Of a stretch of DNA of 64,000 nt, positions 1,288-61,483 are shown piece by piece (the stretch's first letter is position 1; every line of letters begins with the position of its first letter). Below the pieces are notes generated by a model. The model did no database searches. It was not told where the DNA came from and worked only from the letters and a program-made list of their open reading frames with translations. The stretch is from a virus, in the IMG/VR virus record IMGVR_UViG_3300045988_082442, positions 149,709 through 213,708 of that record, one strand, 5' to 3'. A program made the translations under genes and the position numbers.

Positions 1288-1305
1288 GGTAAAATATTAA
1301 TGAGG
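1288..1305 (+). promoter_or_regulatory. late-type conserved motif copy 1 (GGTAAAATATTAATGAGG)
   Basis: 51 nt before ATG 1356; forms the 5' arm of hairpin 1291-1331. Confidence 0.6.
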
Positions 1306-1337
1306 AATATGTAAAACCTCATTAATATTTTTTATTT
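1291..1337 (+). terminator. terminator whose 5' arm is the late motif
   Basis: AAAATATTAATGAGG 1291-1305 pairs with CCTCATTAATATTTT 1317-1331, then a T run. Confidence 0.7.
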
Positions 1338-1355
1338 TGTAAAGGAGAGTGTAGA

Positions 1356-4300
1356 ATGGCATCAGTTACAACACCAACTATAAATAAGATAATTAGATTA
1401 AAGAATTATGATTTACTAGGTACACAATGTAAGAAATACAATATGTATATGTGCCTAGATACACTTCAATTATGGTATGACGAATCTGATTCAAAGAGAG
1501 TATTATATGCCTATGTAGGGGTAGACACAGTAAATGATTTACAGAAAAATTTAATACCAGAATTAGGAACAACATATTACTGTTGGGAGAGTAATTCATT
1601 ATGGTTATGGATGAACAGATGGATATGTTTATATACAGATGGTAAATACCCTAGTGCATATAGAACAGATAACGGTTATATAGAAGAAGTATATTTAAGT
1701 GATGACCAACCAACAATAGTAGATAATAATGGATTATTGAGAGATGGCTCTGTTGTTGTTAGGGATGCTAATAGAATAATCAAAGGTAGATTATATATAA
1801 GTGATAGCATGGATAATCTAGTTATATCATCATATTTAGGTGGTGGTGTAAGAATACTTCCAAATGGTGCATTCTCAAGTGATGGGGAATTATACATAGA
1901 TGATGATGCTAGAGCATATATTAGGGGAGAATGGAATGTAAGAAACCATGAAATTTATGTAGACTATACAGAAAAGCCAAATGAGGATAAAAATGAATAT
2001 AGAGATAGTACACATAGATATAGAGTATGGCATGAAGGAAACCTAAAATTATCTAGCTTTGATTTAACAGGAGAGAATATTTATAATAAGATTATAGATG
2101 CACAAAAGAATGGAACATTACCAGACCCATTAGTATTAAATGTAGATAGATTAAATGGATTACATTCAACAGATTTTGCATTGAAGAGTCATGTGCATAC
2201 AACTAGCGAAATATCAGACTTTAAGGAAGCAACAGAAGCAGCAGCAGAAGCAGTATTAAAGAATAGATTAACAAATATGATATTCAAAGGTGCAAAAATA
2301 ACATGGGTAGAAGCATCAAAGAAGTTTATGTTAAGTACAGATAACTTCATATTAACATTAACAGGTGGAGTTACAGGACAAGGTACTGTTACAAATAATA
2401 CAAATACAACAATAGCAGTAACAGTAGACCCAAATAAACATAAGCACAAAGATATAACTGATAGATTAGATAAATTAGAAAAAGGTGGAGGAGCAGACTT
2501 ATCAAACTACTATAATAAACAAGAGGTAGATAAAAATATAAGTGATATGTTCTCAGCAACACCAATACAAGGAAAAGCATTATTAGTAGATAAAAATAAG
2601 AATTTACCAGGAAATGCTTTAACAGCAAGTGATTTAGACCATGATACGGAATTAGAATTAGATGGAGATATAACAGGAGCAGTTACATTTGGTTATGATT
2701 TAACTAGATTAACATTAACAACAGATGCATCAAAAATAGTATCAGATACAGCAACAGCAGGAAAAGCATTAAAATTAGATAGTAATGCAGAATTACCAGC
2801 AACCTCATATAAAGCGAAACAATTAGACCATGATATAGAATTTAATATAGCAGGAGCAGTAACTGGAAGAGCAACATTAGATACATCTCAATCATCATTT
2901 ACAATAAATACAACAATACCAGCAGGCTCAAAGATACTAACAAAAGATGATTTAGGTGTAACAGTAGCATCATTAGGAAGTGATGGAAAAGTATTAAGTT
3001 CACAATTACCAGATACAGCAATAGGTGGTATGAAAATAGTAGATACATGGTCAGGAGGAATAGCACCAAGTACAAAGCCAGGAGAAGGTAATGTATGGTA
3101 TGTAGATACAGACTGCACATTTAATGGAAAGAGCTATAAAGCAGGGGACTGGATTTATTATCATAATTCAAGTTGGAATAGAGCAGACTTAGGAGTAAGT
3201 GTTAAATCTGTAAATGGAAAATCAGGAGAAAGTATTACACTAACACCAGCAGATGTAAAAGCAATATCAGAAGATTATATAGACTATACAATAGGTGCAG
3301 ATATACCACAAAATAAAATAGTAGTCACAGATAAAGATAGGCATATAGCAGGAGCAACAGTTGATAAATTAACAAAAGAATTTTCAATAGGAAGTACTAA
3401 TGGGGATGTTTCAATAAGTGCAACAAAGAGTACAAATTTAAAAACAGATGGCTCAAAGAACTTAAATTTAACAATGGAAATAACACAGGATGGATATGAT
3501 AACATAGCAAAAAATGTTAGAAGAGATATAAAAAACAATAATTCAAATGTACCATTTAGAAAGAATTTGAACTTTGTTGACTTTGCCATAGCAGATGATA
3601 GTGGAACGAATACAGTTACAATTAAACCTGATTATACTAATGTTGATGAAATATTATATTTTAATGGAACGCTTACAGATGATTTTAAGAAAAGATTAAC
3701 TAATAACTATTATAATAAAAATGACAGACCTTTTTATATAGCATATAGAGATGCTAACAATAGAATACAATTAGTTGGAATAAATGGAAGTATTGCAGAC
3801 GCAGCAGATAATACAACTATTTCTATACCAACAGGAGAATACTCTACAGTATTAGAAAGTAATAAAGTTATAACTAAAGTAGCAACAGCTAATATAACAT
3901 TTGATTCTGGTGGGAATATATCTAATTTTACAATAACAAGAACTAATTCAACAGAGGCATTACCAATATCTGGTGGTACATTAACAGGAAATATAACATT
4001 ATCAAAATCATCAGGAGATGTAAGTTATTATGCCAAAAGAAGTGATACAGGAACTCAAGTTTGGATGGGTATAGGTTCAGGTGGTGTTAATCATGGATTA
4101 TACTCTAATAAGTTAAATAAATGGATGGTATATGCAGATGCAACAAATGTTTATCTAAATGGAAATGCCACATCAGCAACAAAAGCAACTCAAGATAGTG
4201 ATGGAAATGCAATAAATACAACATATTTGAAAAAGTCAGGTGGCACAATGACAGGTACTATTACAACAAGAGCACTAACACCATCAGCAAACAATACTTA

Positions 4301-4451
4301 TAGTGTAGGAACAAGTAGTGCGAGATATAGTAATGGTTACTTTACAAATACAAATACAACAAATCTAATTGTAAATGGAAGAAAAGTATTTCTACAAAGT
4401 GGTACACCATCAGGAGCATCAAATGGTGATATATGGATAGTAACAAAGTAG
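1356..4451 (+). CDS. tail fibre protein, 1031 aa
   Basis: Fibre-type motifs LNGLHSTDFALKSHVHTTSEISDF and repeated GGTLTGNI / GGTMTGTI near the C-terminus; late motif 1288-1305 upstream. Confidence 0.8.
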   Translation: MASVTTPTINKIIRLKNYDLLGTQCKKYNMYMCLDTLQLWYDESDSKRVLYAYVGVDTVNDLQKNLIPELGTTYYCWESNSLWLWMNRWICLYTDGKYPSAYRTDNGYIEEVYLSDDQPTIVDNNGLLRDGSVVVRDANRIIKGRLYISDSMDNLVISSYLGGGVRILPNGAFSSDGELYIDDDARAYIRGEWNVRNHEIYVDYTEKPNEDKNEYRDSTHRYRVWHEGNLKLSSFDLTGENIYNKIIDAQKNGTLPDPLVLNVDRLNGLHSTDFALKSHVHTTSEISDFKEATEAAAEAVLKNRLTNMIFKGAKITWVEASKKFMLSTDNFILTLTGGVTGQGTVTNNTNTTIAVTVDPNKHKHKDITDRLDKLEKGGGADLSNYYNKQEVDKNISDMFSATPIQGKALLVDKNKNLPGNALTASDLDHDTELELDGDITGAVTFGYDLTRLTLTTDASKIVSDTATAGKALKLDSNAELPATSYKAKQLDHDIEFNIAGAVTGRATLDTSQSSFTINTTIPAGSKILTKDDLGVTVASLGSDGKVLSSQLPDTAIGGMKIVDTWSGGIAPSTKPGEGNVWYVDTDCTFNGKSYKAGDWIYYHNSSWNRADLGVSVKSVNGKSGESITLTPADVKAISEDYIDYTIGADIPQNKIVVTDKDRHIAGATVDKLTKEFSIGSTNGDVSISATKSTNLKTDGSKNLNLTMEITQDGYDNIAKNVRRDIKNNNSNVPFRKNLNFVDFAIADDSGTNTVTIKPDYTNVDEILYFNGTLTDDFKKRLTNNYYNKNDRPFYIAYRDANNRIQLVGINGSIADAADNTTISIPTGEYSTVLESNKVITKVATANITFDSGGNISNFTITRTNSTEALPISGGTLTGNITLSKSSGDVSYYAKRSDTGTQVWMGIGSGGVNHGLYSNKLNKWMVYADATNVYLNGNATSATKATQDSDGNAINTTYLKKSGGTMTGTITTRALTPSANNTYSVGTSSARYSNGYFTNTNTTNLIVNGRKVFLQSGTPSGASNGDIWIVTK

Positions 4452-4464
4452 GAGGTAGGTAAAT

Positions 4465-5220: not shown

Positions 5221-5229
5221 AATATGAAA

Positions 5230-5259
5230 AAGACTACAAATAATGTAGTCTTTATTTTT
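5230..5259 (+). terminator. rho-independent terminator
   Basis: AAGACTACA / TGTAGTCTT stem plus T-rich tail. Confidence 0.75.
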
Positions 5260-5260
5260 A

Positions 5261-5276
5261 GTAAAATATTAATGAG
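5261..5276 (+). promoter_or_regulatory. late-type motif copy 2 (GTAAAATATTAATGAG)
   Basis: 30 nt before ATG 5306, right after terminator 5230-5259. Confidence 0.6.
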
Positions 5277-5305: not shown

Positions 5306-7510
5306 ATGGCAGATGTTTGGTGTGATAATGGTTGGCATACTGGTGGAGCACCTAGAAGAAAAGTATCTGGAACTTTAAGTGCTAATTATTCAGGTTTAAC
5401 CATAAGTGCTTCTTTTAGTGGAAATCAAGTATTAACTGCTTCAGGTTTCTCTTCAATGTCAGATACAGCAAGACTTTACATAGATGGTAATCAGGTTGGC
5501 AGTACAACAGTTGCAATGACTGGTGGTGGAATATCTATGTCAGGTTCTTTAAATGTAGGTGCTGGAAATCATACAATTTCAGTAACTATGGAATGTCCTG
5601 ATGTTACAAATGGAAGACATTGTTCTGCCAGTCTAAGGGGACCTATAACTATTGGTTCATTAACATTATATGTACCAGACCCATATTCTCCCCCTTCTTA
5701 TGATATATGGAGTGCTACCCAAATTGTAAAGGTTGATAGGGATAAAGTAGATGTAAACTATAAAATAGATGGTGGTACAAATGGACTTGATTGGGTTATT
5801 GCAAGAGTAGACGGTGTAAAGGATTTTAATGCAAGTAAAAATAAAGGTGGTTCTTTATGGACATCTTTCTACCCAACATGGGGTGATGGCTTTAGACATG
5901 GAAGCTCTTATAATGTTAGAATAAGATTTAGCGATAATCATGCAGAATATCAAACAGGACATAAGACCTTTTATACATATCAAGAACCTAAACTTACAGG
6001 AGTATCTGTAAGTCCATCATCTGCAAATGCACAAAACCAATCTATAACATTTACACAATCAGGAATAAACGATAGAGCTTGGTCAACATTAGAACAAAAA
6101 TTCTATACATTAGCACATTGTACAGCTGGTGGTTCAAATGTAGGTAATGGATGGACACAAGTAGGTACAGTGGGAAACAATGCTTCATTTACATTAAACG
6201 GAGCATCATTAAGGGGATTTGTACCAAAGGCTTATGATAATCAAACAGTAACAATGCATGTTAAAAGAAGGAACAGTTCAGCAAACTGGGAAAGTGCAGA
6301 GCAAACTTGCACATTTAAAGTTATATATAGACCTCAAAAAGGTGTAACCTGTGCTAATACATCATACAAGAAGAATAACTCATTTGGTGCTGCAGTAGGT
6401 AAGGGGGCATTAGTAATAAATGATAATACTACAACTGGAATACATATATCTTGGAATTATGATACAACAACATCTGATGCAGGATATACACAGGGTTATA
6501 GAATAAGATTATATAATACATCTAAAGTAGTAGTAAAAACATATTATACATCTAGCAAGAACTATACAATACCTAAAGCAGATATACCTAAAATGCAGAA
6601 TACTTATATAGATATAACTCCATATTTTGCAAATGACCAAAGTAGTGTTGCTTCATCAGCTGTTGCAGGAAATTATTGGTATTTTGCAAACCCAGTTAAA
6701 TGTGATTTTGTAGTGTTGGCTACTAAATTGAGCAAACCAACAATAACATACCCAGTAGAAGGAAGTGAGTGGATAAATACAAAATTTAGAGTTTGTTTCC
6801 AATTACCATCAGATGGAGATAAGGGTGCAGAACTAGAAACATATCATTATGAGGATATAGAGGTAAGTGTAAATGGAAAAGTATTTAGAATGACATCAAA
6901 TCCAGAAGGTTTAACATCTGGTGGAGTTCAAGCAGCTGGAGCATTTAGTTCAACAGCATCAAATTTAACATATACAAAAAAGATAGTTGTTGCACCATTT
7001 AAAGCATCTAATTTCCCTACAGCATCAACATATCAAATAAGGGTAAGAGTTAAAAAGAAATATACAACAGTAAAGAATAACTGGAGCCCATGGAGTGATG
7101 TTAGAACATTTAGAGTAAAGACAGCTACATTTACACCAGCAGTAGGAGATATAATTTATGCTTCCCACTATAATGATTCTAAAAAGGTTATAGATAGGGT
7201 AAGAAAAACATATAGTGTAGCTTGGAATACAAAACCATCAGATGTAGCAAGAGGAACAGAGATATTAAGAACACAATATCCATATACAAATTTATATAGT
7301 ATTATTGTTGATACTAAAAAGAAAGTAAATAACTATGCAACATTTGATTCTTCTCAAACATCTGTAAAATTTGATAGCACAAATGCAATACAAGAAAACT
7401 TTACACAATATGTTGAATTGGTAACAGCAGCGAGTAATGAAAGCAAGTCTGATGCAAGTGGTAGAAACTATATGAGAATAGTTTACGATAGATGCAACAA
7501 GTTAATTTAG
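5306..7510 (+). CDS. large structural protein with Ig/FN3-like repeats, 734 aa
   Basis: Beta-rich S/T/N/G composition; FN3-like stretch GIHISWNYDTTTSDAGYTQGYRIRLYN; late motif 5261-5276 upstream. Confidence 0.5.
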   Translation: MADVWCDNGWHTGGAPRRKVSGTLSANYSGLTISASFSGNQVLTASGFSSMSDTARLYIDGNQVGSTTVAMTGGGISMSGSLNVGAGNHTISVTMECPDVTNGRHCSASLRGPITIGSLTLYVPDPYSPPSYDIWSATQIVKVDRDKVDVNYKIDGGTNGLDWVIARVDGVKDFNASKNKGGSLWTSFYPTWGDGFRHGSSYNVRIRFSDNHAEYQTGHKTFYTYQEPKLTGVSVSPSSANAQNQSITFTQSGINDRAWSTLEQKFYTLAHCTAGGSNVGNGWTQVGTVGNNASFTLNGASLRGFVPKAYDNQTVTMHVKRRNSSANWESAEQTCTFKVIYRPQKGVTCANTSYKKNNSFGAAVGKGALVINDNTTTGIHISWNYDTTTSDAGYTQGYRIRLYNTSKVVVKTYYTSSKNYTIPKADIPKMQNTYIDITPYFANDQSSVASSAVAGNYWYFANPVKCDFVVLATKLSKPTITYPVEGSEWINTKFRVCFQLPSDGDKGAELETYHYEDIEVSVNGKVFRMTSNPEGLTSGGVQAAGAFSSTASNLTYTKKIVVAPFKASNFPTASTYQIRVRVKKKYTTVKNNWSPWSDVRTFRVKTATFTPAVGDIIYASHYNDSKKVIDRVRKTYSVAWNTKPSDVARGTEILRTQYPYTNLYSIIVDTKKKVNNYATFDSSQTSVKFDSTNAIQENFTQYVELVTAASNESKSDASGRNYMRIVYDRCNKLI

Positions 7511-7525
7511 TAAAATATTAATGAA
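7510..7525 (+). promoter_or_regulatory. late-type motif copy 3 (GTAAAATATTAATGAA)
   Basis: 28 nt before ATG 7553; overlaps the stop codon of the upstream gene. Confidence 0.6.
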
Positions 7526-7552: not shown

Positions 7553-8593
7553 ATGATAAAAGATTATAGTAAAGTACCTCGTACATTTAGTGTTACAAAT
7601 AACACAGGAGCAGACAAGGAGATAGATTTAAGATTTATCAAATTAGTAGTTAAAAATGAAGAAACAATATCTGTAAAAGTAGAGGTAAGCGAACACCTTG
7701 CATTATTTACAGCAAGAGCAAATGAATTAGGTTTAGAGTTAGGAGAACCAGCAACAGAAGTAACTGATGAAGCTTCTATGAAAGAAGCATTAGTAGATGA
7801 AAATGTTAAAGAAGTTGTATTGTCAGCAGATTTAGAATTAGCAGAAGCATTAGTACCTACACATGATATAACAATAGATGGTAATGGAAAAACAATAACA
7901 TCTACTAAAAGAATCGCAAATGCTGAAGGTGTTACAGTTGAATTAAAAAATGTTAATGTAAATGTTACAGAAGACACAGCAGTTAGAGCATCAAAAGGTG
8001 GAAAAGTAATTATAGGAAGTGATGCTAAAATAACTAACACAAAAGGTTGGGGTGTAACAGCATTTGAAGAAGGAACAACAGTAGAAATAAATGGAACTAT
8101 TGAAACTGGTTCAGAACCTTGTATTGCAGGAAATGGTTCAGCAGGTAAAGGAAATACAAATATAGTAATAAATGAAGGAGCTAAATTAGTGTCTGATGAT
8201 ATAACTATATTCATACCACAAGACGGAACAGTTACAATCAATGGTGGTGAAATAGTAGGTAAAACTGCAATAGGTATAAAAGCAGGTACACTTAACATAA
8301 ATGGTGGTACATTGACAGCAAATGGTGAAAAAGTAGAAACACCAAAAGCAAATAACAATGGTATGGCTGCTTGGGGAGATACAATAGCAATAGAAGTAAA
8401 TAAAGGATATGCTGGTGGAAAAACAGATAAGAACATCAAAGTAAATGTATCAGACAAAGCAGTATTAACTTCAGCAAACGCAGAAGTAATAAGAGAATTC
8501 AACCCACTAAAAGAAACAATATCAACAGAAGTAACAGGTGCTTATGCAAATAAAGAAGAAGTTGCAGAAAACATATTTGTATATACAAAATAA
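7553..8593 (+). CDS. beta-helix repeat protein, putative spike/adhesin, 346 aa
   Basis: Repeats of the type VTINGGEIVGKTAIGIKAGTLNINGGTLTANG; late motif 7510-7525 upstream; terminator 8613-8650 downstream. Confidence 0.5.
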   Translation: MIKDYSKVPRTFSVTNNTGADKEIDLRFIKLVVKNEETISVKVEVSEHLALFTARANELGLELGEPATEVTDEASMKEALVDENVKEVVLSADLELAEALVPTHDITIDGNGKTITSTKRIANAEGVTVELKNVNVNVTEDTAVRASKGGKVIIGSDAKITNTKGWGVTAFEEGTTVEINGTIETGSEPCIAGNGSAGKGNTNIVINEGAKLVSDDITIFIPQDGTVTINGGEIVGKTAIGIKAGTLNINGGTLTANGEKVETPKANNNGMAAWGDTIAIEVNKGYAGGKTDKNIKVNVSDKAVLTSANAEVIREFNPLKETISTEVTGAYANKEEVAENIFVYTK

Positions 8594-8612
8594 TAATGAA
8601 ATAGATATATGA

Positions 8613-8650
8613 ACAAGGGATATGTAATAGTATCCCTTGTTTTATTATTT
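8613..8650 (+). terminator. rho-independent terminator
   Basis: ACAAGGGATA / TATCCCTTGT stem plus TTTT. Confidence 0.75.
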
Positions 8651-8651: not shown

Positions 8652-8667
8652 GTAAAATACTAATGTA
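8652..8667 (+). promoter_or_regulatory. late-type motif copy 4, degenerate (GTAAAATACTAATGTA)
   Basis: 28 nt before remnant ATG 8695; drives the endonuclease cassette. Confidence 0.45.
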
Positions 8668-8682
8668 AAGGAAATTTAAGGA

Positions 8683-8719
8683 GGAGGTAATCAAATGGCA
8701 AATTCAGTAGCATATTATG
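8683..8719 (+). repeat. 37-bp direct repeat, copy A (RBS plus first codons of the spike gene)
   Basis: Identical to 10387-10423 except one T/C difference. Confidence 0.85.
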
Positions 8720-8733
8720 CTAAGATGTTGTAG
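8695..8733 (+). other. 12-codon remnant ORF (MANSVAYYAKML) duplicating the 5' end of gene 10399..12939
   Basis: 37-nt block 8683-8719 matches 10387-10423 (RBS, ATG and first 8 codons) with one mismatch. Confidence 0.7.
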
Positions 8734-8749: not shown

Positions 8750-10318
8750 ATGGGTAATAATAGAGTAAAGCTAAATGACAAGATTTTGTCAGATGAGGAG
8801 TTAAAGAACGAGATAATAAAATATTATATAAATAATAATCATACAATACAAGAAACAGCAGATTACTTTGACGTGAATATAACAACCATTACTAGAAAGT
8901 TAAAGAAGTTCAAAATTAGAAAATCAAAAGAACTTATAGAAGAATCTAAAAAGATGAGAAATAGAGAAAAATATGGTGTAGATTACCCTCTACAATTAGA
9001 AGAGACTACAAGGAAAAGGGAGCAAACCAATTTAGAGAAATATGGTTATAAAAATCAATTTCAAAGACCAGATATAATAGAAGATATACAAGATGCTAGA
9101 AGTGAAAAGATGGACAAGATTGTATCTAAAACAAAAGATACTTGGAATAAAAGATACGGTGGGCATCCATTATCAAATAAAGGGGTACAGCTTAAAGCAA
9201 AACAAACTAACTTAAAAAGATATGGTGTAGAATATTCATCCCAAAATGATGATATAAAGAAGAGGAAGAAAATTTCCAGAATAAAATACTTTGAGGAAAA
9301 TTCAGAAGAATATAATCTGTTAAGAGATAAAGAGAGATTTAAACAAATAGTATTAAGTATTCCTTACGAAGAAAGAACATCAACATCATGTGCAGAAAAA
9401 ATGGGCATACATACAACTACATTTAATAAGTGGTTTAAGCTTCATAATCTTAAAGAAGAGATTTCAATGAACTTTCAAAGAAGTAGACAGGAACAAGAAA
9501 TAACAGAATATATAAAATCATTTTATACAGGTATTGTAATAAATAACTATAAGCTAGATATGGAACTAGACATTTATTTACCAGAATTAAAATTAGGAAT
9601 AGAGTTTAATGGAACATATTATCATGATGTGGAACATAAAGGAAAAGGTTACCATCAAGAGAAATCATTCTATTTTAAAGAAAAAGGAATATTTGTATAT
9701 CATATATATGAATGGGAATGGGAAGATGATATAAAAAGAGAAATAATAAAAAATAGTTTAAGAAGAATGATACTAAACGATAACAAAGTTATCTATGCAA
9801 GAAAATGTGAACTTAAAGAAGTAGGTTCATCTGAATCATCTAAATTCTTAAATCAATATCATATACAAGGTAATGTAAATGCAACTATAAGATATGGTTT
9901 ATATTATGAAGATACCCTTGTAGAGATAATGACATTTTCAAAAGCAAGATATACAGACGGATATGAAATAATAAGATTGTGTTCTAAATCAGATATAAAT
10001 GTAGTAGGTGGAACAGAAAGATTATTTAAGCATTTTATAGAACAATATAATCCTAGTAGAATTATCTCATATTGTAACATAGATAAGTTTAAGGGAACAA
10101 TATATGAGAAAGTAGGCATGAAGCTGGACAAGATAAATCCACCAAATTATAAATGGGTAAATTGTAATGATAATGATGTTAAGTCAAGATACCAATGTCA
10201 AAAGCATCTAATAAGGGAAGATGAAAATGATACTAGAACTGAATCAGAAATTATGAAATCAAGAGGATATATAAAAGTAGAAGACGCTGGGACTTATAGA
10301 TTTATATTGGAGAGATAA
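8750..10318 (+). CDS. free-standing homing-endonuclease-like protein, paralog 1 (HTH, KYG repeats, Vsr/PD-(D/E)XK-like core, conserved C-terminal domain)
   Basis: Repeated EKYGV/KRYGV modules; LDIYLPELKLGIEFNGTYYHD nuclease-like core; C-terminal IYARKCELKEV..FLNQYHIQG..VVGG shared with 57655..59361 and 62020..63012. Confidence 0.65.
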   Translation: MGNNRVKLNDKILSDEELKNEIIKYYINNNHTIQETADYFDVNITTITRKLKKFKIRKSKELIEESKKMRNREKYGVDYPLQLEETTRKREQTNLEKYGYKNQFQRPDIIEDIQDARSEKMDKIVSKTKDTWNKRYGGHPLSNKGVQLKAKQTNLKRYGVEYSSQNDDIKKRKKISRIKYFEENSEEYNLLRDKERFKQIVLSIPYEERTSTSCAEKMGIHTTTFNKWFKLHNLKEEISMNFQRSRQEQEITEYIKSFYTGIVINNYKLDMELDIYLPELKLGIEFNGTYYHDVEHKGKGYHQEKSFYFKEKGIFVYHIYEWEWEDDIKREIIKNSLRRMILNDNKVIYARKCELKEVGSSESSKFLNQYHIQGNVNATIRYGLYYEDTLVEIMTFSKARYTDGYEIIRLCSKSDINVVGGTERLFKHFIEQYNPSRIISYCNIDKFKGTIYEKVGMKLDKINPPNYKWVNCNDNDVKSRYQCQKHLIREDENDTRTESEIMKSRGYIKVEDAGTYRFILER

Positions 10319-10340
10319 AAGTATCTCTCTTTATTTATTT
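10309..10340 (+). terminator. rho-independent terminator overlapping stop codon
   Basis: GAGAGATA / TATCTCTC stem plus T-rich tail. Confidence 0.65.
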
Positions 10341-10356
10341 GTAAAATATTAATGAG
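10341..10356 (+). promoter_or_regulatory. late-type motif copy 5
   Basis: 43 nt before ATG 10399, after terminator 10309-10340. Confidence 0.6.
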
Positions 10357-10386
10357 AGACATCAAGATAATAGATGTTATTATAAA

Positions 10387-10423
10387 GGAGGTAATCAAAT
10401 GGCAAATCCAGTAGCATATTATG
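10387..10423 (+). repeat. 37-bp direct repeat, copy B
   Basis: See 8683-8719; the two copies bracket the endonuclease gene. Confidence 0.85.
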
Positions 10424-15634: not shown

Positions 15635-16068
15635 ATGAAAGATGTAATTGAAGAAACAAAAAGATTGATATTAAATAATAATAGAAAAAATTTAACAGAA
15701 ATGGCTAGAATTGGTTATTTATATGATAAGAAAGGAAGAAAGGAAGACCAGAAGAGCAGTTTGAAGTATATGTAAATACAAATGATGATGGGGATAGACC
15801 ACACTTTCATTTAAGATATGAACCAGACTGGGATGAATTTCATATCTGTATTAGAATTGACTGTTGTGAATACTTTGAACACGAGGGAAAAGAGAGTACT
15901 TTAAATAGTAGTATGAGAAAAAGGTTAGTAAACTTTCTAACATCTATAAATGAGGATGATGATAGCAAAACAAACTGGCAAGTTTTAGTTATTGAATGGA
16001 ACAGAAATAACTCTAATCAAAAAGTAGATAAAGATATTGAGATGCCAGATTATTTGAATTTGAAGTAA
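15635..16068 (+). pseudogene. frame-disrupted small gene with PHFH motif (DUF4160-like by memory)
   Basis: ATG 15635 frame stops at 15773-15775. A second frame, open from 15730, encodes ...FEVYVNTNDDGDRPHFHLRYEPDW... to TAA 16066-16068 with no start of its own. The shift lies in the A/G-rich run 15730-15750. Confidence 0.55.
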
Positions 16069-16080
16069 AATATTAATGAA
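16065..16080 (+). promoter_or_regulatory. late-type motif copy 6 (GTAAAATATTAATGAA)
   Basis: Overlaps stop 16066-16068; followed by a hairpin and then early promoter 16132-16160. Confidence 0.45.
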
Positions 16081-16131
16081 AGCAGGTAGGACATACAAAT
16101 TCTACCCGCTTTAAACTTTTAAGAAAAATGC

Positions 16132-17197: not shown

Positions 17198-18026
17198 ATG
17201 ATAAAAAGAAATAAGAGAAAATCAACAACAAACAGAAGATTTAAAGATACTAAAAGGAGTAGTCACCTGAGAAGGAACAATAAGTTTAGTGTAAAGAAAG
17301 GTTTTAAAAAGCCACATTTAAGAATAGACAGAATAATATTAGTTATAATGATTATAGTTTTTATAATATTAATACATAATCAATATAAGAAACAACATGA
17401 AACAGACAATACATTAAATAAAATGATAAATACTTTAGAAACAATACAGACAGAGCTAGAAGATATGACTGATAAACAAGTGCAATTAGAAGAGAAACAA
17501 AAAGAGTTAGAAGTATCAAAAGCTCAAAAGAAAGAAGAGAAAGCAAGATTAGCAAGGGAAGCAGAAGAAAAGGCTAGAATTGCTAAGGAAGAAGCTAGAA
17601 AAGCAGAAGAAGCTAGAAAAGCAGAAGAAGCTAAGAAACAAGAACAAATAAGAGTTGCCAGTACAAAACCAGTTACATCAAGAGGTGGAACAACAGTAAG
17701 GGAATCAAGCTCTAGTTCTAAATCAGGATTACAATCTTATGCACATGATTTATGTATAAATACTTATGGTTGGTCAGAAAATGATTATCAATGTTTAGTT
17801 AAATTATGGAATAGAGAATCAGGATGGAATCCAAATGCCCATAATAAATCATCAGGATCCCATGGTATTCCACAGTCATTACCAGCATCTAAGATGGCTA
17901 GTGAAGGTTCTGATTATTATACAAATGGAAAAACCCAGATACGCTGGGGATTACGGGTATATTAAAAATAGATATAGCAATCCTTCTAGTGCCTGGGCTC
18001 ACTCACAGCAGACAGGGTGGTATTAA
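17198..18026 (+). pseudogene. membrane-anchored lytic-transglycosylase-like cell-wall hydrolase; reading frame broken near 17946-17955
   Basis: TM helix, KAEEARKAEE coiled coil, ESGWNPNAHNKSSGSHGIPQ motif. The conserved C-terminal YIKNRYSNPSSAWAHSQQTGWY lies in another frame (ORF 17835..18026). Confidence 0.7.
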
Positions 18027-18562
18027 TGGAAATATGGAAAGATATTAAAGGCTATGAAGGTTACTATCAAGTAAGTAATCAAGGAAGGGTTAAAAGTCTA
18101 AGCAGAACTGTAAGTAAGAATTATAATCCAAGAAGAATAAGGGAAAGAATACTAAAAGTGAGACCAGATAAAGACGGTTATCTTTGTGTTACACTATCTG
18201 TTGATAATGTTAAAAAGGGTTTCCCTGTCCATAGGCTTGTTGCAATGACTTTTATTCCAAATCCAGAAAATAAAAGAACTGTAAATCACATAGATGGAGA
18301 TAAAACTAATAATTGTGTTGAAAATTTAGAGTGGGCTACTGATTTAGAACAAACAGTTCATGGAATCAGGCTTGGGATTATAAATCCACATCATACAAAG
18401 AATAGAAGACGTAGAAGGGTTATAAGGAGTGACGGTATTATTTATGATTCTATAAAGGAGGCTGCAGAGAAAAATAATCTTTTTACTTCTAATATAATTG
18501 TATGCTGTCAAGGTAAGGTAAATTCTATTGGTGGCTATCATTGGGATTATTATAGTGGTTAA
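18026..18562 (+). CDS. HNH homing endonuclease (NUMOD4-like N-terminus plus HNH)
   Basis: MEIWKDIKGYEGYYQVSNQGRVKS and HRLVAMTFIPNPENKRTVNHIDGDKTNNCVENLEWAT. Confidence 0.85.
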   Translation: MEIWKDIKGYEGYYQVSNQGRVKSLSRTVSKNYNPRRIRERILKVRPDKDGYLCVTLSVDNVKKGFPVHRLVAMTFIPNPENKRTVNHIDGDKTNNCVENLEWATDLEQTVHGIRLGIINPHHTKNRRRRRVIRSDGIIYDSIKEAAEKNNLFTSNIIVCCQGKVNSIGGYHWDYYSG

Positions 18563-18608: not shown

Positions 18609-18624
18609 GTAAAATATTAATGAG
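18609..18624 (+). promoter_or_regulatory. late-type motif copy 7
   Basis: 48 nt before ATG 18672 (gene preceding portal), after terminator 18566-18596. Confidence 0.6.
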
Positions 18625-29388: not shown

Positions 29389-29404
29389 ATAAAATATTAA
29401 TGAG
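29389..29404 (+). promoter_or_regulatory. late-type motif copy 8 (ATAAAATATTAATGAG)
   Basis: 52 nt before ATG 29456; its 3' end is the 5' arm of hairpin 29399-29431. Confidence 0.55.
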
Positions 29405-33560: not shown

Positions 33561-33576
33561 GTAAAATATTAATGAG
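33561..33576 (+). promoter_or_regulatory. late-type motif copy 9
   Basis: 27 nt before ATG 33603. Confidence 0.6.
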
Positions 33577-36257: not shown

Positions 36258-36273
36258 GTAAAATATTAATGAG
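36258..36273 (+). promoter_or_regulatory. late-type motif copy 10
   Basis: After terminator 36218-36257; 146 nt before GTG 36419. Confidence 0.6.
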
Positions 36274-52869: not shown

Positions 52870-52885
52870 GTAAACTATTAATGAA
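52870..52885 (+). promoter_or_regulatory. late-type motif copy 11, variant (GTAAACTATTAATGAA)
   Basis: 18 nt before GTG 52903. Confidence 0.5.
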
Positions 52886-53612: not shown

Positions 53613-53628
53613 GTAAAATATTAATGAG
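53613..53628 (+). promoter_or_regulatory. late-type motif copy 12
   Basis: 14 nt before ATG 53642. Confidence 0.6.
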
Positions 53629-54173: not shown

Positions 54174-54189
54174 GTAAAATATTAATGAG
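54174..54189 (+). promoter_or_regulatory. late-type motif copy 13
   Basis: 72 nt before protease ATG 54261. Confidence 0.6.
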
Positions 54190-54260: not shown

Positions 54261-55790
54261 ATGGGAAAGTCAATGATAATTGAAGCTCAAGATTCTTCTC
54301 TTGTATATGAAAAAGGACAAAAAGGTGTTCTTGGAAAACTTAGTGGGGTATTTGCTAATTTCCGTACTGGCACTAGAAATGGTGGTAGATTATACAATGA
54401 GGAGCTTATTGATAAAAGAATATTTGGAAATGAAGATGTAATGGAAGCTCTTGAAACAAGAACTCTATTTGGTGAATTAGACCACCCTGAAGGAGATAGA
54501 TGTGAAACTTTAGCTCAAAATGCTGCAGTATCTATAATAAAATTAGAAAAAGATGCTGAAGAAGGAGTTGTAAAAGGGGAAGCATTAATTCTTGATACAC
54601 CATCTGGTAGAACTTTAAAAGCATTAGTAGATAGTGGAGCAAAAATGGGAATATCAAGTAGAGGTATAGGAGAAGAAATTATAAGTAATGGTCAAACAAT
54701 AATAGACCCAGATACATACGATTTCATAACATTTGATATAGTTGTTACACCAGCAAATAAAGGTGCAAGACTTTCATTAGTTGAAAGTAAACAAAAAGAT
54801 ACAATGCTATATAAATCAATTAAAAAAGAAATCAATGAGTGTATAAGTTTAAATCAGCTAGACCAATTAAGTAAAGTTGTTGAAAATAACATCCCAGTTG
54901 GTAAAGCAAGATTAAAGAAACTTATTGAAGATAAGATAACTACACTTACATCTGATGAAGATATTACAGATAAAAGTGAAGATATACAAGGTAATGAAGA
55001 TATTATACCTAACAATGTTCAAGAGGAACCAGTTGAAAAGACTGATAAACTTGAGGAACAAAAACTTGTAAACAATGAATTACAAGATGCATCTGCTAAA
55101 CTATTAGAGGAAAATAAATCTTTATTAGAAAGAGCAGAAAAAGCTGAAAGAAACAATAAGCTATTGCAAATTAAACTAAAAGAAAGCAGAAAGTTAGAGA
55201 AGAAATCAGAAGTATCTTTAAATGAATCTAAAACAGATAAAGAAGAAATCATTAGAAAACTTAAAAAGATAAATGAAAGTAAACTTAAAAATGTAGAAGG
55301 AACATATAAAGATAAGATTAAATCTTTACAAGAAAGCTTAAAGAATAGTGAAATTGAAAATAGTAAGTTACTTGAAGCAAACAAACTACTAGGAAAGAAG
55401 TCAGTTGAATTGAATAACAAATTAGTAGAATCTAATAAGTTAAACGAAGAAACTAAATCTAAACTAGAAGAAGCACAATCTAAATTAGTTGAGAGTGCAA
55501 ACCAAATTAAAATGTTAGAAAATAAAGTTGTAGAAACTAAAGATGCTAACAAATCAAAGCTTGAAGAAAATAGAAAGCTTGAAGAAAGTAAGATTTTAAA
55601 TCTACAAAATCAATTAGAAGAAGCTAGAAATCAAATATCACAACTAACTGAAGCCAAAGAAAGAATAGCTAAGTTACCATTTAATATAACACAAGCAAAT
55701 CTTAAATATGAAGGCTTACAGCATGAAATAAGTATAAGTGATGATGATAAAGCATTATTCGATACAATGGTTGAAATGAACCAAAAATAA
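54261..55790 (+). CDS. T4 gp21-like prohead core protease fused to a coiled-coil scaffold domain
   Basis: GGRLYNEELI...LFGELDHP...KMGISSRGIGE parallels the remembered T4 gp21 NKRLYPKRIL...LGELNHP...GVSSRGLGS. The C-terminal 300 aa or so is K/E/L/N coiled coil. ATG 54261 is preferred by RBS. Confidence 0.8.
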   Translation: MGKSMIIEAQDSSLVYEKGQKGVLGKLSGVFANFRTGTRNGGRLYNEELIDKRIFGNEDVMEALETRTLFGELDHPEGDRCETLAQNAAVSIIKLEKDAEEGVVKGEALILDTPSGRTLKALVDSGAKMGISSRGIGEEIISNGQTIIDPDTYDFITFDIVVTPANKGARLSLVESKQKDTMLYKSIKKEINECISLNQLDQLSKVVENNIPVGKARLKKLIEDKITTLTSDEDITDKSEDIQGNEDIIPNNVQEEPVEKTDKLEEQKLVNNELQDASAKLLEENKSLLERAEKAERNNKLLQIKLKESRKLEKKSEVSLNESKTDKEEIIRKLKKINESKLKNVEGTYKDKIKSLQESLKNSEIENSKLLEANKLLGKKSVELNNKLVESNKLNEETKSKLEEAQSKLVESANQIKMLENKVVETKDANKSKLEENRKLEESKILNLQNQLEEARNQISQLTEAKERIAKLPFNITQANLKYEGLQHEISISDDDKALFDTMVEMNQK

Positions 55791-56026: not shown

Positions 56027-56372
56027 TAACTAATATTTAGTAATTTTCTAAATTCGGGTAACATTAAACACTGTGAATTGCTGGAACATCCTAAAGCTCA
56101 AAGTACCAAAGTGTGAAAATCTTTGAGATGTAACAATGGACAATCAGCAGCTGTTATTTGACAAATAAATGTCAAATATGCAGTTCAACGACTATCGAAA
56201 GTATAGACTAAGAGAAATACTTAGTTGAATAAATGAGTAGAGTACAACCTAAGTAGGTTGGAAGTGCAGTGCAACATATAAAGGTTAAAACAATATATGT
56301 TGAAGATATAGTCTAATCTTATATGAAAGTATAAGAGTTATAATGGAAACGATTATAGCGTAATGAATAATG
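56027..56372 (+). ncRNA. group I intron (IA2-like, td-like), ORF-less, 346 nt
   Basis: P1: exon AATGTTGCT 56018-56026 pairs with GGTAACATT 56057-56065, with the terminal U.G pair. P7: GACTAT 56190-56195 pairs with ATAGTC 56308-56313. AACGACTATC and GAAGATATAGTCT match remembered td-intron strings. P8 hairpin 56272-56302. P9 hairpin (6-nt TGAAAG loop) 56318-56335 plus a further 3' hairpin. Terminal G at 56372. Confidence 0.8.
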
Positions 56373-57542
56373 GGAATAAGAAAAGACTTATTTAATATGA
56401 CAACATTAGCTGTTCAAAACAGAGTATTACCAGAAGTAGTATCTGTTCAAGCTATGAGTTCAGCATTACAATATCTACCAATATTAGAATTTAAAGCAGG
56501 AGAAACAAAAGGACAAGTACAAGAAGGTATGATATTCAATAGTGGTGCTGGATACCAAGATATAGCTGATAGCCACTATGATGGAAAATATGTTGTAAAT
56601 GAAGTTTTAGCACCAGCTGGAACAACAGGTACAGTAGACATAGTTATATCAAGATTACCAATCAACGCTGGAACAATCAAAATCGTTGAAGGAACAAAAG
56701 TTGCAACAGATGACGGTAGCGGAAATATTACAGGTGATTTCACAGGTAAAATAGATTATACAACTGGTACAGGTACAATTACAGCTGCAGCTGCAGCTAC
56801 AGAAGACATCAAAATTTCTTATACTTATGCAAATGAAGAAATAAGAAATGGAGATAAAGGACCAGCTAAAGTTACATTAGGAATTACACCAGTTGAAATG
56901 AAAGCTGAAGAACATCAATTACAAGCTGTATATGCTTTATCAGCAGCATACAGACTAGACAAAGAATTTGGTGTATCTATGCCATTAGTATTTGAACAAC
57001 AAGTTGCTAATGAAATGAACAAAGAACAAGAAAGATTAGTATTCTCAGATATGTTTAACAATGCTCAAGGTGGAGCTGCAGTAGTATGGAGTTCAACACC
57101 AAGACCAGGTGTATCTGATAAAGACCATATTGATAGTTTACCAATAGCTGTAAACTTAGCTGCTGCTAAAATTTACCAAGCTACAGGTGGAAACTTAGGA
57201 GCAAGCTTTATACTAGCTGGTTCAAACGCTGGAGCTTACTTCGCTAAAACAACAGGATTCAATGCTGAAAATATGCCTTTAAATGGTGGAAGCTTCTATT
57301 TAGGAAAAATGGGTAACCTAGATGTATTCCAAGTACCAAGTTTAGCACCAAATGACTTCTTAATTGGAGCAAAAGGAAATGAATATTACAACGCAGGATA
57401 TGTTGTTGGGGACTACATGCCAATTACATTTACAGCCCCAGTATCTCTTGCAGATTTATCTACACAACAAGGTTGGTTATCAATCTATGCTAACAAAATT
57501 GTTAATGCTAAATTATATATCAGAGGAAGAATTACTGTTTAG
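56373..57542 (+). CDS. major capsid protein (T4 gp23-like), exon 2
   Basis: LFNMTTLAVQNRVLPEVVSVQAMS, EEHQLQAVYALSAAYRLDKEFG and the C-terminus parallel remembered gp23 segments; the frame joins exon 1 to give ...QVSNVA/GIRKDLF... Confidence 0.8.
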   Translation, partial: GIRKDLFNMTTLAVQNRVLPEVVSVQAMSSALQYLPILEFKAGETKGQVQEGMIFNSGAGYQDIADSHYDGKYVVNEVLAPAGTTGTVDIVISRLPINAGTIKIVEGTKVATDDGSGNITGDFTGKIDYTTGTGTITAAAAATEDIKISYTYANEEIRNGDKGPAKVTLGITPVEMKAEEHQLQAVYALSAAYRLDKEFGVSMPLVFEQQVANEMNKEQERLVFSDMFNNAQGGAAVVWSSTPRPGVSDKDHIDSLPIAVNLAAAKIYQATGGNLGASFILAGSNAGAYFAKTTGFNAENMPLNGGSFYLGKMGNLDVFQVPSLAPNDFLIGAKGNEYYNAGYVVGDYMPITFTAPVSLADLSTQQGWLSIYANKIVNAKLYIRGRITV

Positions 57543-57654: not shown

Positions 57655-59361
57655 ATGATAATTAAATGTGCTAATTGTAATAAAGAATTTGAACCAAGTA
57701 AACAAATTCAAAATAGAATAAAAAAGGAACCAGACAAACCTAGGTTCTGTTCTCCTAAATGTAGAGCAGAATATACTGGTAAGAAAAGAAAAATAATAGA
57801 AGAGTATATATGCGATTATTGTGGTAAGAAATTTATATTATCTAGTGACCAAAGACATGATAAAGCAAAGAATCCTAATAATAAATACTTTTGTGGTAGA
57901 CAATGCTCTGGTAAGTATAATATGTCAATAGAAGATAATGTCATAAAAAGAAACAAAAACTCAGAACAAACAAAACTAAATAAGTATGGAGATGCCCATT
58001 TTAATAATCATGATAAAACTGTAAGGACATTACAAGATAAATATAATGTAGATAATGTCTTTCAACTTGATAGTATCAAAGAGTTATCAAAATCAACAAA
58101 GCTAGAAAGATATAATGATGCTAACTACAATAACAAAGAACAAATTAGTAAAACACTTTTAAATATGGATGCTGATAAGAAGAAAGAATGGGTAAGTAAG
58201 AGAAAGAAATCACAATGTGATACTATTCAAAACAGAACAGATGAGGAATGGGAAGTTATAAAGAATAAATTATCAGAAAGTAATGCAAGAGCATGGAGTA
58301 ATTTCACAGATGATGAAAAGAATAGTATTAGAAAGTCTATGTCTGATAGTCAAAAGAAAAGATGGGAAGAAATGCCTATTGAAAAGAAGCGAGAATTATT
58401 TAAGAAGTATAGAATATCAATGATGGATAGATATGGAACCATTTGTAACTTTACAAGAGAAGAAGTACAAGAGAAGTCAAGACTAAATAACGGACATACT
58501 ATATCAAAAACTAATATAAAGTTTAGGCAAAGAGTACTAGAAGAAACTGGTGTGAACTTTACACTAGAAAAAGATGGATTTGATTTAGTGAAAGATGATG
58601 TTGCAATAGATATAAACCCAACATTTACCCATAACTGTGCTTTTGGGTTTGCATATTTAACAGGTAGAACTACTGAGAATAAACCCATTGCTGAAGATTA
58701 TCACTATAAAAGATATTTAAAGGCATCAGAACTAGGATACCATCTAATAAATGTGTGGGATTGGGACGATATAAATAAAATACTAGATATGATAAGAGAT
58801 AAGGAAACATTATATGCTAGAAAGTTACATATAAAAGAAGTATCTACAAAAGATACAGCTGAATTTTTAAATAATTATCATATACAAAATACATGTAAGG
58901 GACAAACTGTCAGATTAGGTTTATATATGGATGATGAACTTGTAGAACTAATGACATTTGGTAAACCAAGATATAATAAGAACTATGAATGGGAATTACT
59001 TAGATTATGTACTAAACCAAATTATATAGTAGTAGGTGGTGCTGAAAAACTATTTAATTGTTTTGTATCTAGCTATGAACCTAACTCTATTATAAGTTAT
59101 TGTGATTTATCTAAGTTTACTGGTAATGTTTACAAGAGATTAGGATTTACACAAAATAATAAAATATTTCCTAGTAAGCATTGGTCAAAAGGAAGTGAGC
59201 ATATTACTGATAACTTATTAAGACAAAGAGGTTATGACCAATTATTTAATGCTAATTATGGTAAAGGTACTTCTAATGAAGAATTAATGATTTTAAATGG
59301 TTGGTTACCAGTATATGATTGTGGTCAAGCAAGTTATACCTGGACAAATTCAAAGGGGTAA
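57655..59361 (+). CDS. free-standing homing-endonuclease-like protein, paralog 2 (two Zn ribbons, KYG repeats, nuclease core, C-terminal domain)
   Basis: CANC...CSPKC, CDYC...CGRQC; NKYGDAHFNN, DKYNVDNVFQ; LYARKLHIKEV..FLNNYHIQN..VVGG; own promoter 57604-57632. Confidence 0.65.
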   Translation: MIIKCANCNKEFEPSKQIQNRIKKEPDKPRFCSPKCRAEYTGKKRKIIEEYICDYCGKKFILSSDQRHDKAKNPNNKYFCGRQCSGKYNMSIEDNVIKRNKNSEQTKLNKYGDAHFNNHDKTVRTLQDKYNVDNVFQLDSIKELSKSTKLERYNDANYNNKEQISKTLLNMDADKKKEWVSKRKKSQCDTIQNRTDEEWEVIKNKLSESNARAWSNFTDDEKNSIRKSMSDSQKKRWEEMPIEKKRELFKKYRISMMDRYGTICNFTREEVQEKSRLNNGHTISKTNIKFRQRVLEETGVNFTLEKDGFDLVKDDVAIDINPTFTHNCAFGFAYLTGRTTENKPIAEDYHYKRYLKASELGYHLINVWDWDDINKILDMIRDKETLYARKLHIKEVSTKDTAEFLNNYHIQNTCKGQTVRLGLYMDDELVELMTFGKPRYNKNYEWELLRLCTKPNYIVVGGAEKLFNCFVSSYEPNSIISYCDLSKFTGNVYKRLGFTQNNKIFPSKHWSKGSEHITDNLLRQRGYDQLFNANYGKGTSNEELMILNGWLPVYDCGQASYTWTNSKG

Positions 59362-60367: not shown

Positions 60368-60396
60368 AGTATATTATAAGTTTTAAATTTTGTCAA
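60368..60396 (-). promoter_or_regulatory. early-type promoter cassette on the reverse strand (-10 TATACT)
   Basis: Reverse complement reads CACTTGACAAAATTTAAAACTTATAA TATACT; drives 59449..60333. Confidence 0.65.
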
Positions 60397-60443
60397 GTGT
60401 TTTTATAAACTTTAAAAGATGTTATTATAGATGAGGTGAAATT

Positions 60444-60710
60444 ATGATTATTACTTATAATGGAAAATCTTTTGAAACAAAGTTCTATGAGCCAATTTCA
60501 GAAGAATATTATCAAGAATTAAAGAAAGAATATTTTAAAAAACCAGATATTGAAGAAGTTAAAGACCAAATATATAAATTATCACAGGGAAGCATTCAAA
60601 ACAATAAAATAACATCATATTACTTTAAAGATATAATGGCTAAAGTAAGATTATACTCTTGTAAATTCTCAGTAGAAGAAGTATTTGATTGTAAGCTTCT
60701 TTATTGCTAA
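60444..60710 (+). CDS. hypothetical protein, 88 aa, overlapping the methyltransferase ORF
   Basis: GAGGTG RBS; the 26-nt overlap with the next ORF in another frame may hide a frameshift. Confidence 0.6.
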   Translation: MIITYNGKSFETKFYEPISEEYYQELKKEYFKKPDIEEVKDQIYKLSQGSIQNNKITSYYFKDIMAKVRLYSCKFSVEEVFDCKLLYC

Positions 60711-61452
60711 AACAAGGGAAAACACAAAAGTCTTTCAAGAAGATGAAACTATGATAAATAAGATTACAAGAGCTATTCAACTAGGTGGTAAAGGTTGTGC
60801 TTTATTTCCTACACAGTTTCCTATTAAAACTATAAATGATGTCCTAAACTTCTATAATATAAATGGTAATTACTATGATTTTAGTTGTGGTTGGGGTGTT
60901 AGATTAACAGGAGCATTAACTCATAGAATAAACTATTTTGGAACTGACCCTAATTATTTACTTACAGAAAAGCTAAATCAATTTGCTAATGATTATAAAT
61001 CTGTTATTAGAACTAATAGTACTGTTGATATTAGAACTCAGGGAAGTCAATACTTTATTCCAGAATGGGAAAATAAGATAGGTTTAGCATTTAGTAGCCC
61101 ACCATACTTTTACTTAGAAGATTATAAAATAGGAGACCAGTCTTATACAGAAGGGACTAGTTATGATAGCTGGAAATCAGACTATTTAAAACCTACTTTT
61201 GAAAACATATATAAATATTTAATTGATGATGGATATTTCCTATTAAATATAAATAACTTTGATAAGTTTAAACTTGCTGAAGATAGCATTAAAATTGCTC
61301 AAGAAGTAGGTTTTCATTTAATTGGATATCATACATTAGAAAACATTAAAAGATGTAAATCATCTGGTGGTTTTAATGATAATAGTGAGAAGATATTTGT
61401 ATTTAATAAGAATAAAGACAAAGGTATAAGGGAAGCAAATCACCTATTTTAG
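60685..61452 (+). CDS. DNA methyltransferase (N6-adenine or N4-cytosine type; motif I before motif IV); start may be ATG 60751
   Basis: YDFSCGWG (FxGxG-like motif I), FGTDPN, SSPPYF ((D/S)PPY motif IV). Confidence 0.7.
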   Translation: MIVSFFIAKTRENTKVFQEDETMINKITRAIQLGGKGCALFPTQFPIKTINDVLNFYNINGNYYDFSCGWGVRLTGALTHRINYFGTDPNYLLTEKLNQFANDYKSVIRTNSTVDIRTQGSQYFIPEWENKIGLAFSSPPYFYLEDYKIGDQSYTEGTSYDSWKSDYLKPTFENIYKYLIDDGYFLLNINNFDKFKLAEDSIKIAQEVGFHLIGYHTLENIKRCKSSGGFNDNSEKIFVFNKNKDKGIREANHLF

Positions 61453-61467
61453 GGTATCTAATTTATT

Positions 61468-61483
61468 GTAAAATATTAATGAG
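61468..61483 (+). promoter_or_regulatory. late-type motif copy 14, inside the loop of inverted repeat 61450-61498
   Basis: 49 nt before ATG 61532; flanked by TTAGGGTATCTA / TAGATACCCTAA arms. Confidence 0.55.

Follow-up and report, generated by a model that had tools for sequence, protein, structure and literature searches.

A recurrent 16-nucleotide motif as a probable late promoter of an uncultured gut phage, and a sigma-70-family candidate for its reader

What is the role of a short sequence that recurs fourteen times on one strand ahead of the structural genes of a large phage, and which factor would read it? The question is raised by 64,000 nucleotides (nt) of viral DNA (IMG/VR record IMGVR_UViG_3300045988_082442, positions 149,709 to 213,708; this whole stretch is hereafter the window) and by the 16-mer GTAAAATATTAATGAG within it. 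The window has ~30% G+C, carries nearly all of its long open reading frames (ORFs) on the + strand, and encodes a portal, a prohead protease (Peptidase_S77) and a major capsid protein (Pfam Gp23) that are all T4-type. Because proteins identical to those it encodes lie on ENA metagenome scaffolds of 213.6-216.5 kb, the window can be assigned to the structural region of an uncultured jumbo phage of ~214 kb, which is known only from gut metagenomes and is myovirus-like with T4-type head genes. A near-DNA search of 50,697 phage records returned no match to the window, and the closest cultured phages, judged by portal and protease, are Streptococcus phage GXN1, Listeria phage LIS04 and Bacillus phages SP-15 and HSE3 (27-44% protein identity over the aligned regions). 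The 220,052-bp contig CASPWD010000003.1, from the bin of an 'uncultured Bacilli' genome, represents a relative at ~80-87% nucleotide identity; the results presented here cover 20 of its 28 8-kb blocks (156 kb). The motif is likely to be a phage-specific late promoter consisting of a single block, with transcription beginning at or just after its fourteenth base (G14), and it is probably read by a sigma factor of the phage.

All fourteen + strand copies listed in the original prediction were recovered across the window, with the first shifted from 1288 to span 1289-1304. Nine copies are exact, three carry one mismatch (7510, 16065 and 29389), one carries two (52870) and one carries three (8652). 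Allowing up to three mismatches, the window holds 16 hits against 5.25 +/- 2.4 expected, a number reached by none of 100 shuffles; the two hits on the minus strand are the palindromic partner of the first copy (1318) and a chance hit with three mismatches (59855). A weight matrix built on motif positions -4 to +19 and run over both strands returned exactly 14 sites at 20-33 bits, and the motif is treated as a discrete class because no site scores between 10 and 20 bits. An origin as chance AT-rich repeats is ruled out by the shuffle statistics and the bimodal scores. Rfam and tRNA scans of the window gave no matches, and a literature search with the motif's sequence string found nothing relevant. 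The copies are listed below (aa, amino acids).

1289..1304, + strand: exact; 51 nt 5' of a 1031-aa gene (1356-4451); 5' arm of the upstream gene's terminator hairpin.
5261..5276, + strand: exact; after the terminator at 5229-5253; 29 nt 5' of a 734-aa gene (5306-7510).
7510..7525, + strand: 1 mismatch; its first base doubles as the final base of the upstream stop codon; 27 nt 5' of a 346-aa pectate-lyase-like gene (7553-8593).
8652..8667, + strand: degenerate, 3 mismatches; after the terminator at 8611-8642; followed by a 12-codon remnant and a homing-endonuclease gene (8750-10318).
10341..10356, + strand: exact; after the terminator at 10309-10330; 42 nt 5' of an 846-aa gene (10399-12939).
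16065..16080, + strand: 1 mismatch; has a hairpin (-13.7 kcal/mol) and a sigmaA-type promoter (16132) on its 3' side; no close downstream ORF.
18609..18624, + strand: exact; after the terminator at 18566-18590; 47 nt 5' of the ATG at 18672; heads the portal operon (portal gene 19147-21063).
29389..29404, + strand: 1 mismatch (A at position 1, the same in orthologues); starts 4 nt after the upstream stop codon; 51 nt 5' of a 1176-aa gene (29456-32986); a strong hairpin follows.
33561..33576, + strand: exact; first + strand signal after a minus-strand gene; heads a small ORF (33603) and fibre-like genes (33803-34864).
36258..36273, + strand: exact; after a hairpin and T-tract; 145 nt 5' of a 575-aa gene (36419-38146), followed by large tail/fibre genes to 52392.
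52870..52885, + strand: 2 mismatches; 17 nt 5' of the GTG at 52903 (218-aa gene); the ribosome-binding site is motif positions 17-24.
53613..53628, + strand: exact; 13 nt 5' of the ATG at 53642; the ribosome-binding site is motif positions 14-20.
54174..54189, + strand: exact; 71 nt 5' of the prohead protease gene (Peptidase_S77, 54261-55790); the major capsid gene (Pfam Gp23, 56370-57542) comes next.
61468..61483, + strand: exact; 48 nt 5' of a homing-endonuclease fragment gene (61532-61948).

Intergenic DNA makes up 11% of the window and contains all fourteen copies, two of which overlap the upstream stop codon by 1-4 nt. The spacing to the start codon had been put at 14-72 nt, and a range of 13-72 nt, counted from the end of the motif, describes 11 of the 14; the exceptions are copy 8652 (82 nt), copy 36258 (145 nt) and copy 16065, which has no ORF for 365 nt. 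Similarly, the placement directly behind an upstream terminator, expected for most copies, was seen for eight, which immediately follow a stable hairpin with a T-rich tract. The genes downstream include the portal operon, the prohead protease with the major capsid protein, and pectate-lyase-like and fibre-like genes, with endolysin added in the relatives. A role as a ribosome or translation signal is ruled out by the variable spacing to the start codon, and a role as a homing-endonuclease target by the fact that such genes lie 3' of only 2 of the 14 copies.

The distribution of the motif beyond the window was followed in both directions and in related genomes. Copies are absent from the 10 kb that precede the window (L083), which hold tRNA-repair and other non-structural genes, and from 20.6 kb of the same genome surrounding the sigma gene discussed below (L551); a further copy lies 3.5 kb past the window end before a 726-aa gene (L086). 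In CASPWD010000003.1, copies cluster in the structural and lysis regions and 25 of 26 hits to the motif core are on the + strand, the sole minus hit being a palindromic partner. Within the DNA covered, which comprises the window and the 156 kb of this relative, the motif is thus not equally frequent inside genes and on the minus strand. At 11 sites that are orthologous between the window and CASPWD010000003.1, the 16-mer is identical at 175 of 176 positions, compared to 59% of the 60-nt upstream flanks and 69% of the 60-nt downstream flanks, and anchored alignments with further relatives show the same invariant island at the motif. The 13-nt core GTAAAATATTAAT also recurs 5' of genes in phages that encode a sigma of only 39-45% identity, and in distant relatives this core is unchanged while positions 14-16 vary (GAG, AGA, GTA, ATT).

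The anatomy of the motif was derived from a logo of 57 non-redundant sites, taken together from the window, the 220-kb relative, relatives in IMG/VR and a clade at greater distance. There is essentially no variation over positions 1-13 (GTAAAATATTAAT), 56 of the 57 sites have a purine at position 14 (G 48, A 8, T 1), and positions 15-17 are biased towards AGG, such that the usual end is GAGG. A weak T-rich tract lies just 5' of the motif. There is no -35 element, as each position between -49 and -12 (numbered from the motif start) holds less than 0.2 bit, and no TG of an extended -10, as G1 abuts TAAAAT and the base before it is variable. In the preferred register, T2-A-A-A-A-T7 would be the -10 hexamer (-12 to -7) and G14 would be +1. 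This register is favored because its spacing is canonical, because position 14 is almost always a purine, and because ribosome-binding sites occupy motif positions 14-24 at three independent sites (52870, 53613 and L560 10540). The start of transcription is accordingly placed at or just after G14 by inference.

The first copy offers a further view of the start site. Here (window 1291-1333) the motif supplies the 5' arm of a terminator-like hairpin of 15 bp (-14.8 kcal/mol, z = -4.0) with a U-tract behind it, and RNA beginning at G1302, the G14 of this copy, cannot form that hairpin (-4.0 kcal/mol). Read-through RNA would therefore be stopped, while RNA initiated at the promoter would escape. 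This layout of a promoter inside a terminator is kept in distant relatives (L022, L058 and L066).

Two other classes of promoter are recognizable in the same genome. One is a full host-type promoter, TTGACA-AAATTTAAAACTTATAA-TAnnAT, with a conserved spacer and ~10 copies on both strands of the window, where it precedes small genes and minus-strand genes; in CASPWD010000003.1 this sigmaA-type class has 28 copies (17 on the + strand and 11 on the minus strand). The conserved elements in the window are as follows.

15570, 16132, 16805, 18633, 21513, 26980, 30797 and 35691, + strand: sigmaA-type element of ~30 nt, (aaaatgc)TTGACAAAATTTAAAACTTATAA-TAnnAT.
33503 and 60381, minus strand: sigmaA-type element, (aaaatgc)TTGACAAAATTTAAAACTTATAA-TAnnAT.

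The invariant spacer suggests that an additional factor may be bound at these promoters, and an IMG/VR scan with a 16-mer of the sigmaA-type promoter matched only unrelated phages. The other class is an extended -10 promoter, AAGATGTTATAAT, that is separate from the late motif. Its form AAAGATGTTATAAT, of the TGnTATAAT type with a conserved AAGA upstream, is found in early/middle regions, including window positions 60415-60428, L551 9905-9918 (before the sigma gene) and many places in CASPWD010000003.1. The predicted late motif is a distinct class beside these two host-type classes, as expected for a temporal cascade. Combined with polarity, intergenic placement behind terminators, restriction to the structural region and conservation, this separation speaks for the phage-specific late promoter that had been proposed, and the predicted promoter role is well supported at the level of sequence; none of the sequence-level tests that might have spoken against it did so.

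The identity of the reader is a separate matter. As first noted for the window, no reading factor appears to be encoded there: neither a sigma factor nor an RNA polymerase was detected among the scanned window ORFs of at least 70 aa. The same was true of ~115 non-window ORFs from relatives; for RNA polymerase domains, it was true of 37 further ORFs of the 220-kb relative, and for RNA polymerase families, including beta/beta', of precomputed Pfam tables for 80 kb of the window's own genome. Searches for T4 gp55 by tblastn and phmmer found no homologue in the window, flanks, relatives or 156 kb of the 220-kb relative (best E 0.14), a result to be read with the fast divergence of gp55 and with the ~70% of the 220-kb relative's genome that the search reached. 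The search outside the window that had been suggested, for a gp55-like or single-subunit RNA polymerase gene, yielded neither in that ~70% of the relative's genome. A weak gp55 hit in L289 was set aside as a zinc-ribbon protein of a different phage group that does not carry the motif.

The search beyond the window did find a sigma-70-family gene. In the early/replication region of the 220-kb relative, a 223-aa ORF matches Pfam Sigma70_r2 (E = 3.7e-11), and its family comprises 52 protein clusters, all metagenomic. One member, P0064 (217 aa), is encoded on scaffolds that also carry window genes (ZEEV15-1 scaffold_17 and SAYO22-1 scaffold_34), on the same strand and ~59-60 kb upstream of the window start, where it adjoins RecA/UvsX-like, clamp-loader and S-adenosylmethionine (SAM)-synthetase genes. 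The 217-aa sigma matches PHROG 351 'RNA polymerase sigma factor' (3.3e-12). In its AlphaFold model (mean pLDDT 73), a disordered acidic linker joins a sigma2-like domain (19-95) to a C-terminal domain of four helices (139-213). Foldseek aligns the full length of the model with SigH, SigD, SigA and sigma-70; the N-terminal domain superposes on that of SigE with a TM of 0.84, and T4 gp55 is not among the model's top 50 Foldseek hits. Homologues of the sigma are present on the motif-bearing IMG/VR contigs 3300006151_000003 and 3300006144_000001, and IMG/VR 3300021255_000083, with a sigma at 39% identity, carries this core ahead of genes, also immediately behind its sigma gene. In total, the sigma family and the motif core occur together in at least five contigs or lineages. 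AAAGATGTTATAAT lies ~85 nt 5' of the sigma start codon in both L551 and CASPWD010000003.1, an arrangement that points to expression of the sigma gene from an earlier, host-type promoter. In one strain, an IS605-type element (Y1 transposase and an OrfB/TnpB-like gene; L549 8267-9782) sits just upstream of the phage sigma gene.

A second gene with a sigma domain was considered and rejected as the reader. At ~135.0-137.2 kb of CASPWD010000003.1 (L500 from 7029-7188 on, into L523), tRNA-Cys and tRNA-Trp genes accompany an ORF that fuses a NUMOD4-like N-terminus to Sigma70_r4. This insertion between the Thg1 and AAA genes (the fusion lies at 135 kb of the relative) is strain-specific and is absent from the same place in the window's own genome.

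These components can be assembled into a working model. Each copy of the motif would open a late transcription unit that is insulated from its neighbours, in many cases directly behind the terminator that ends the unit before it and in one case nested in that terminator's 5' arm. The motif would be read by host core RNA polymerase with the phage 217-aa sigma-70-family factor bound, and the host-type extended -10 promoter of the sigma gene would provide for a cascade from early/middle to late expression. Provided that the motif is a promoter, there is roughly an even chance that this sigma reads it.

Several observations weigh against this model. The link between sigma and motif is one of co-occurrence and plausibility only. 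The sigma has a sigma4-like domain, a domain that normally reads a -35 element, yet no -35 is conserved. Another factor, for example a gp55/gp33-like pair, may be encoded in the ~30% of the relative (8 of 28 blocks) or the larger part of the window's genome that lies outside the scans. Copy 16065 is without a gene close downstream, and a transcript started at G14 would include the strong hairpins that directly follow copies 29389 (29399-29428, -21.5 kcal/mol) and 16065 (16079-16112, -13.7 kcal/mol), which fits a start ~10 nt further downstream. The hairpin at 29399 is retained with a different stem sequence in the relative L047, and both hairpins may be terminators of the upstream units or 5' stabilizing stem-loops. 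An alternative register modeled on phiEco32 gp36, with AATGAG at -14 to -9 and a start near position 25, would explain why these hairpins spare the promoter's own transcripts; however, it places the three ribosome-binding sites outside of the mRNA, and the distant clade does not conserve AATGAG.

Among the other explanations for the motif, the one that survives best, though still unlikely, is that host sigmaA reads TAAAAT as a -10, aided by a late activator or appropriator of the phage that binds the flanks or removes the need for a -35. Such factors are exemplified by gp39 of Thermus phage P23-45, Mu C and late activators of the RinA/ArpU type. TAAAAT matches five of the six bases of the sigmaA -10 hexamer at canonical spacing to purine 14, host sigmaA clearly serves the two other promoter classes of the genome, and several unannotated early proteins are rich in helix-turn-helix (HTH) motifs, such as the helicase-HTH fusion at L286 15762-18008. 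Conversely, the TG of an extended -10 is absent, with a variable base before G1, and 17 contiguous constrained positions are more than an activator half-site and a -10 together would usually produce. Additionally, the sigma-70-family factor encoded by the phage needs a promoter class that it can read, and no other unexplained conserved promoter motif was seen.

Two further explanations are very improbable. Promoters of phage-encoded RNA polymerases are contiguous blocks that extend up to the start site, and the continuous ~17-nt block with its G-rich end (GAGG) is superficially T7-like; such a polymerase, whether single-subunit and T7-like or multisubunit and non-virion as in phiKZ/AR9, could lie outside the part of the genome that the scans covered, but no RNA polymerase domain of any type was found in any Pfam or PHROG scan of the window and relatives or in the precomputed Pfam tables, and the head genes are T4-type with no phiKZ-type virion module. 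An element acting in RNA, as an endoribonuclease processing site or protein-binding leader between cistrons, would equally be expected to be strand-specific and intergenic, and the motif is AU-rich and mostly unstructured, but 8 of the 14 copies lie just 3' of terminator-like hairpins, a place that little read-through RNA would reach, a gene on the minus strand precedes copy 33561, the start-codon spacing of 13-145 nt argues against a translational operator, the motif of the first copy is base-paired within the hairpin of read-through RNA, and Rfam has no match.

Elements of this kind are well known; the novelty lies in the consensus, in its length and constancy throughout a deep clade of phages, and in the candidate sigma family. 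A bolder interpretation, put forward tentatively and with more doubt than confidence, is that the motif represents a promoter class without a -35 that is read by a previously undescribed family of compact sigma factors (sigma2, acidic linker and sigma4-like domain) restricted to one clade of gut phages of ~200 kb that have T4-type head genes. T4 gp55/gp33 would here have been replaced by an unrelated sigma with an equivalent role, and the 13 invariant bases up to the start site and the nesting of promoters in terminators would reflect a mode of recognition that differs from those of known sigma factors. The motif does not overturn the current view of phage gene regulation. It provides a marker of late transcription units in an abundant family of uncultured ~200-220-kb gut phages, which aids the annotation of unknown structural genes, and it adds a case to how compact phage sigma factors recognize promoters without a -35. 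The tight 13-17-nt promoter and its candidate orthogonal sigma might also serve as a compact expression switch in low-GC Gram-positive bacteria.

Other features of these genomes should be noted. The load of homing-endonuclease genes in the structural region is unusually high (DUF7487/PHROG 3339 and HNH types), with genes at window 8750-10318, 18017-18562, 57655-59361 and 61532-63012 and at L086 14329-15933 and 19434 onwards, one of which appears to be split; the family is too widespread to pick out paralogous places in relatives. The gene at 8750-10318 is flanked on both sides (8652-8730 and 10341-10440) by a repeated segment in which the late motif is followed by a ribosome-binding site and the opening ~10 codons of the 846-aa gene. 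The segment on the upstream side (8652-8730) has decayed and the endonuclease gene is absent from two related contigs, and the duplication looks like the footprint of an endonuclease-gene insertion that carried a promoter duplication with it. A different repeat, TGTAAAAGATTTAG at window 45376, 49293 and 50868, is a coding repeat (peptide GLYVKDLE) common to the large fibre genes and is not regulatory. On ZEEV15-1 scaffold_17, ~50 kb 5' of the window (L551 19820-19988), three direct-repeat copies of 36-37 nt, GTTTTATAGCTATGTAAAATGACACAGATGTGAAAG, with a 66-nt period constitute a CRISPR-like mini-array in a phage genome. Lastly, the minus-strand gene at L286 15762-18008 belongs to the early cluster and fuses a DEAD/ResIII helicase to several HTH repeats, and L036 7562-10405 encodes a 948-aa protein of repeated HTH-like modules that matches no family; either protein may regulate transcription.

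The motif can be compared to several known systems. The closest cultured phages, SP-15, LIS04, HSE3 and GXN1 (Thornevirus-like), also encode their own sigma-70-family factor, but that factor is of a different, clade-specific family resembling extracytoplasmic function (ECF) sigma factors, whose profile has no counterpart in the phage family studied here and matched only SP-15 itself in IMG/VR. The promoter of these phages, GCTCgATT-N14-ACGTyTATA, has two blocks and is unrelated to the late motif. It is repeated 5' of many early/middle genes in L090 (LIS04), L282 (SP-15), L283 (HSE3) and L284/L089 (GXN1), and it appears to be undescribed in the SP-15 genome paper, which mentions no promoters or sigma factors. 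Bacillus phage SPO1 shares a Gram-positive host and the use of sigmaA for early genes with sigma-70-family factors of the phage later on. In the SPO1 cascade, gp28 serves middle and gp33/gp34 serve late expression, and both middle and late promoters consist of a -35 and a -10 block; these blocks are ~17 bp apart, a layout that most alternative sigma factors share, unlike the 57 sites here, which have no -35 information.

The likeness to T4 extends from the Gp23 capsid, S77 protease and portal to the late promoter, a single block in the -10 region without a -35. T4 late promoters have TATAAATA at -13 to -6 and are read by gp55 with gp33, a small and poorly conserved protein, and the gp45 sliding clamp. 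In the preferred register, GTAAAATA occupies -13 to -6 and agrees with the T4 box at 5 of 8 letters, and a clamp-loader gene lies near the sigma gene. However, motif positions 1-3 are invariant and unlike T4, conservation extends ~9 nt further downstream than the T4 box, and in place of a gp55 homologue (none was detected, as reported above) the sigma that was found has sigma2 and sigma4-like domains.

Functionally, the closest system is that of phiEco32 gp36, also present in phage 7-11, whose middle/late promoters carry AATGTA centered at -11.5 (PMC12276001, PMC4331800). The two differ in several respects: no sequence similarity between gp36 and the 217-aa sigma was detected among PDB sequence hits or the top 50 fold hits, no partner comparable to gp79 was identified here, the conserved block is 6-9 nt in phiEco32 versus 13-17 nt here, and a 77-kb podovirus stands against a ~214-kb phage with T4-type heads and a Gram-positive gut host. 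Nevertheless, gp36 is likewise a compact sigma that replaces the host's and pairs a sigma2-like domain at its N terminus with a sigma4-like one at its C terminus, and its promoters show that such a sigma can work with one evident block (PMC12276001). Both motifs have the letters AATG, and in both phages a single evident block near -10 lies upstream of the structural genes while early genes are served by strong host-type promoters.

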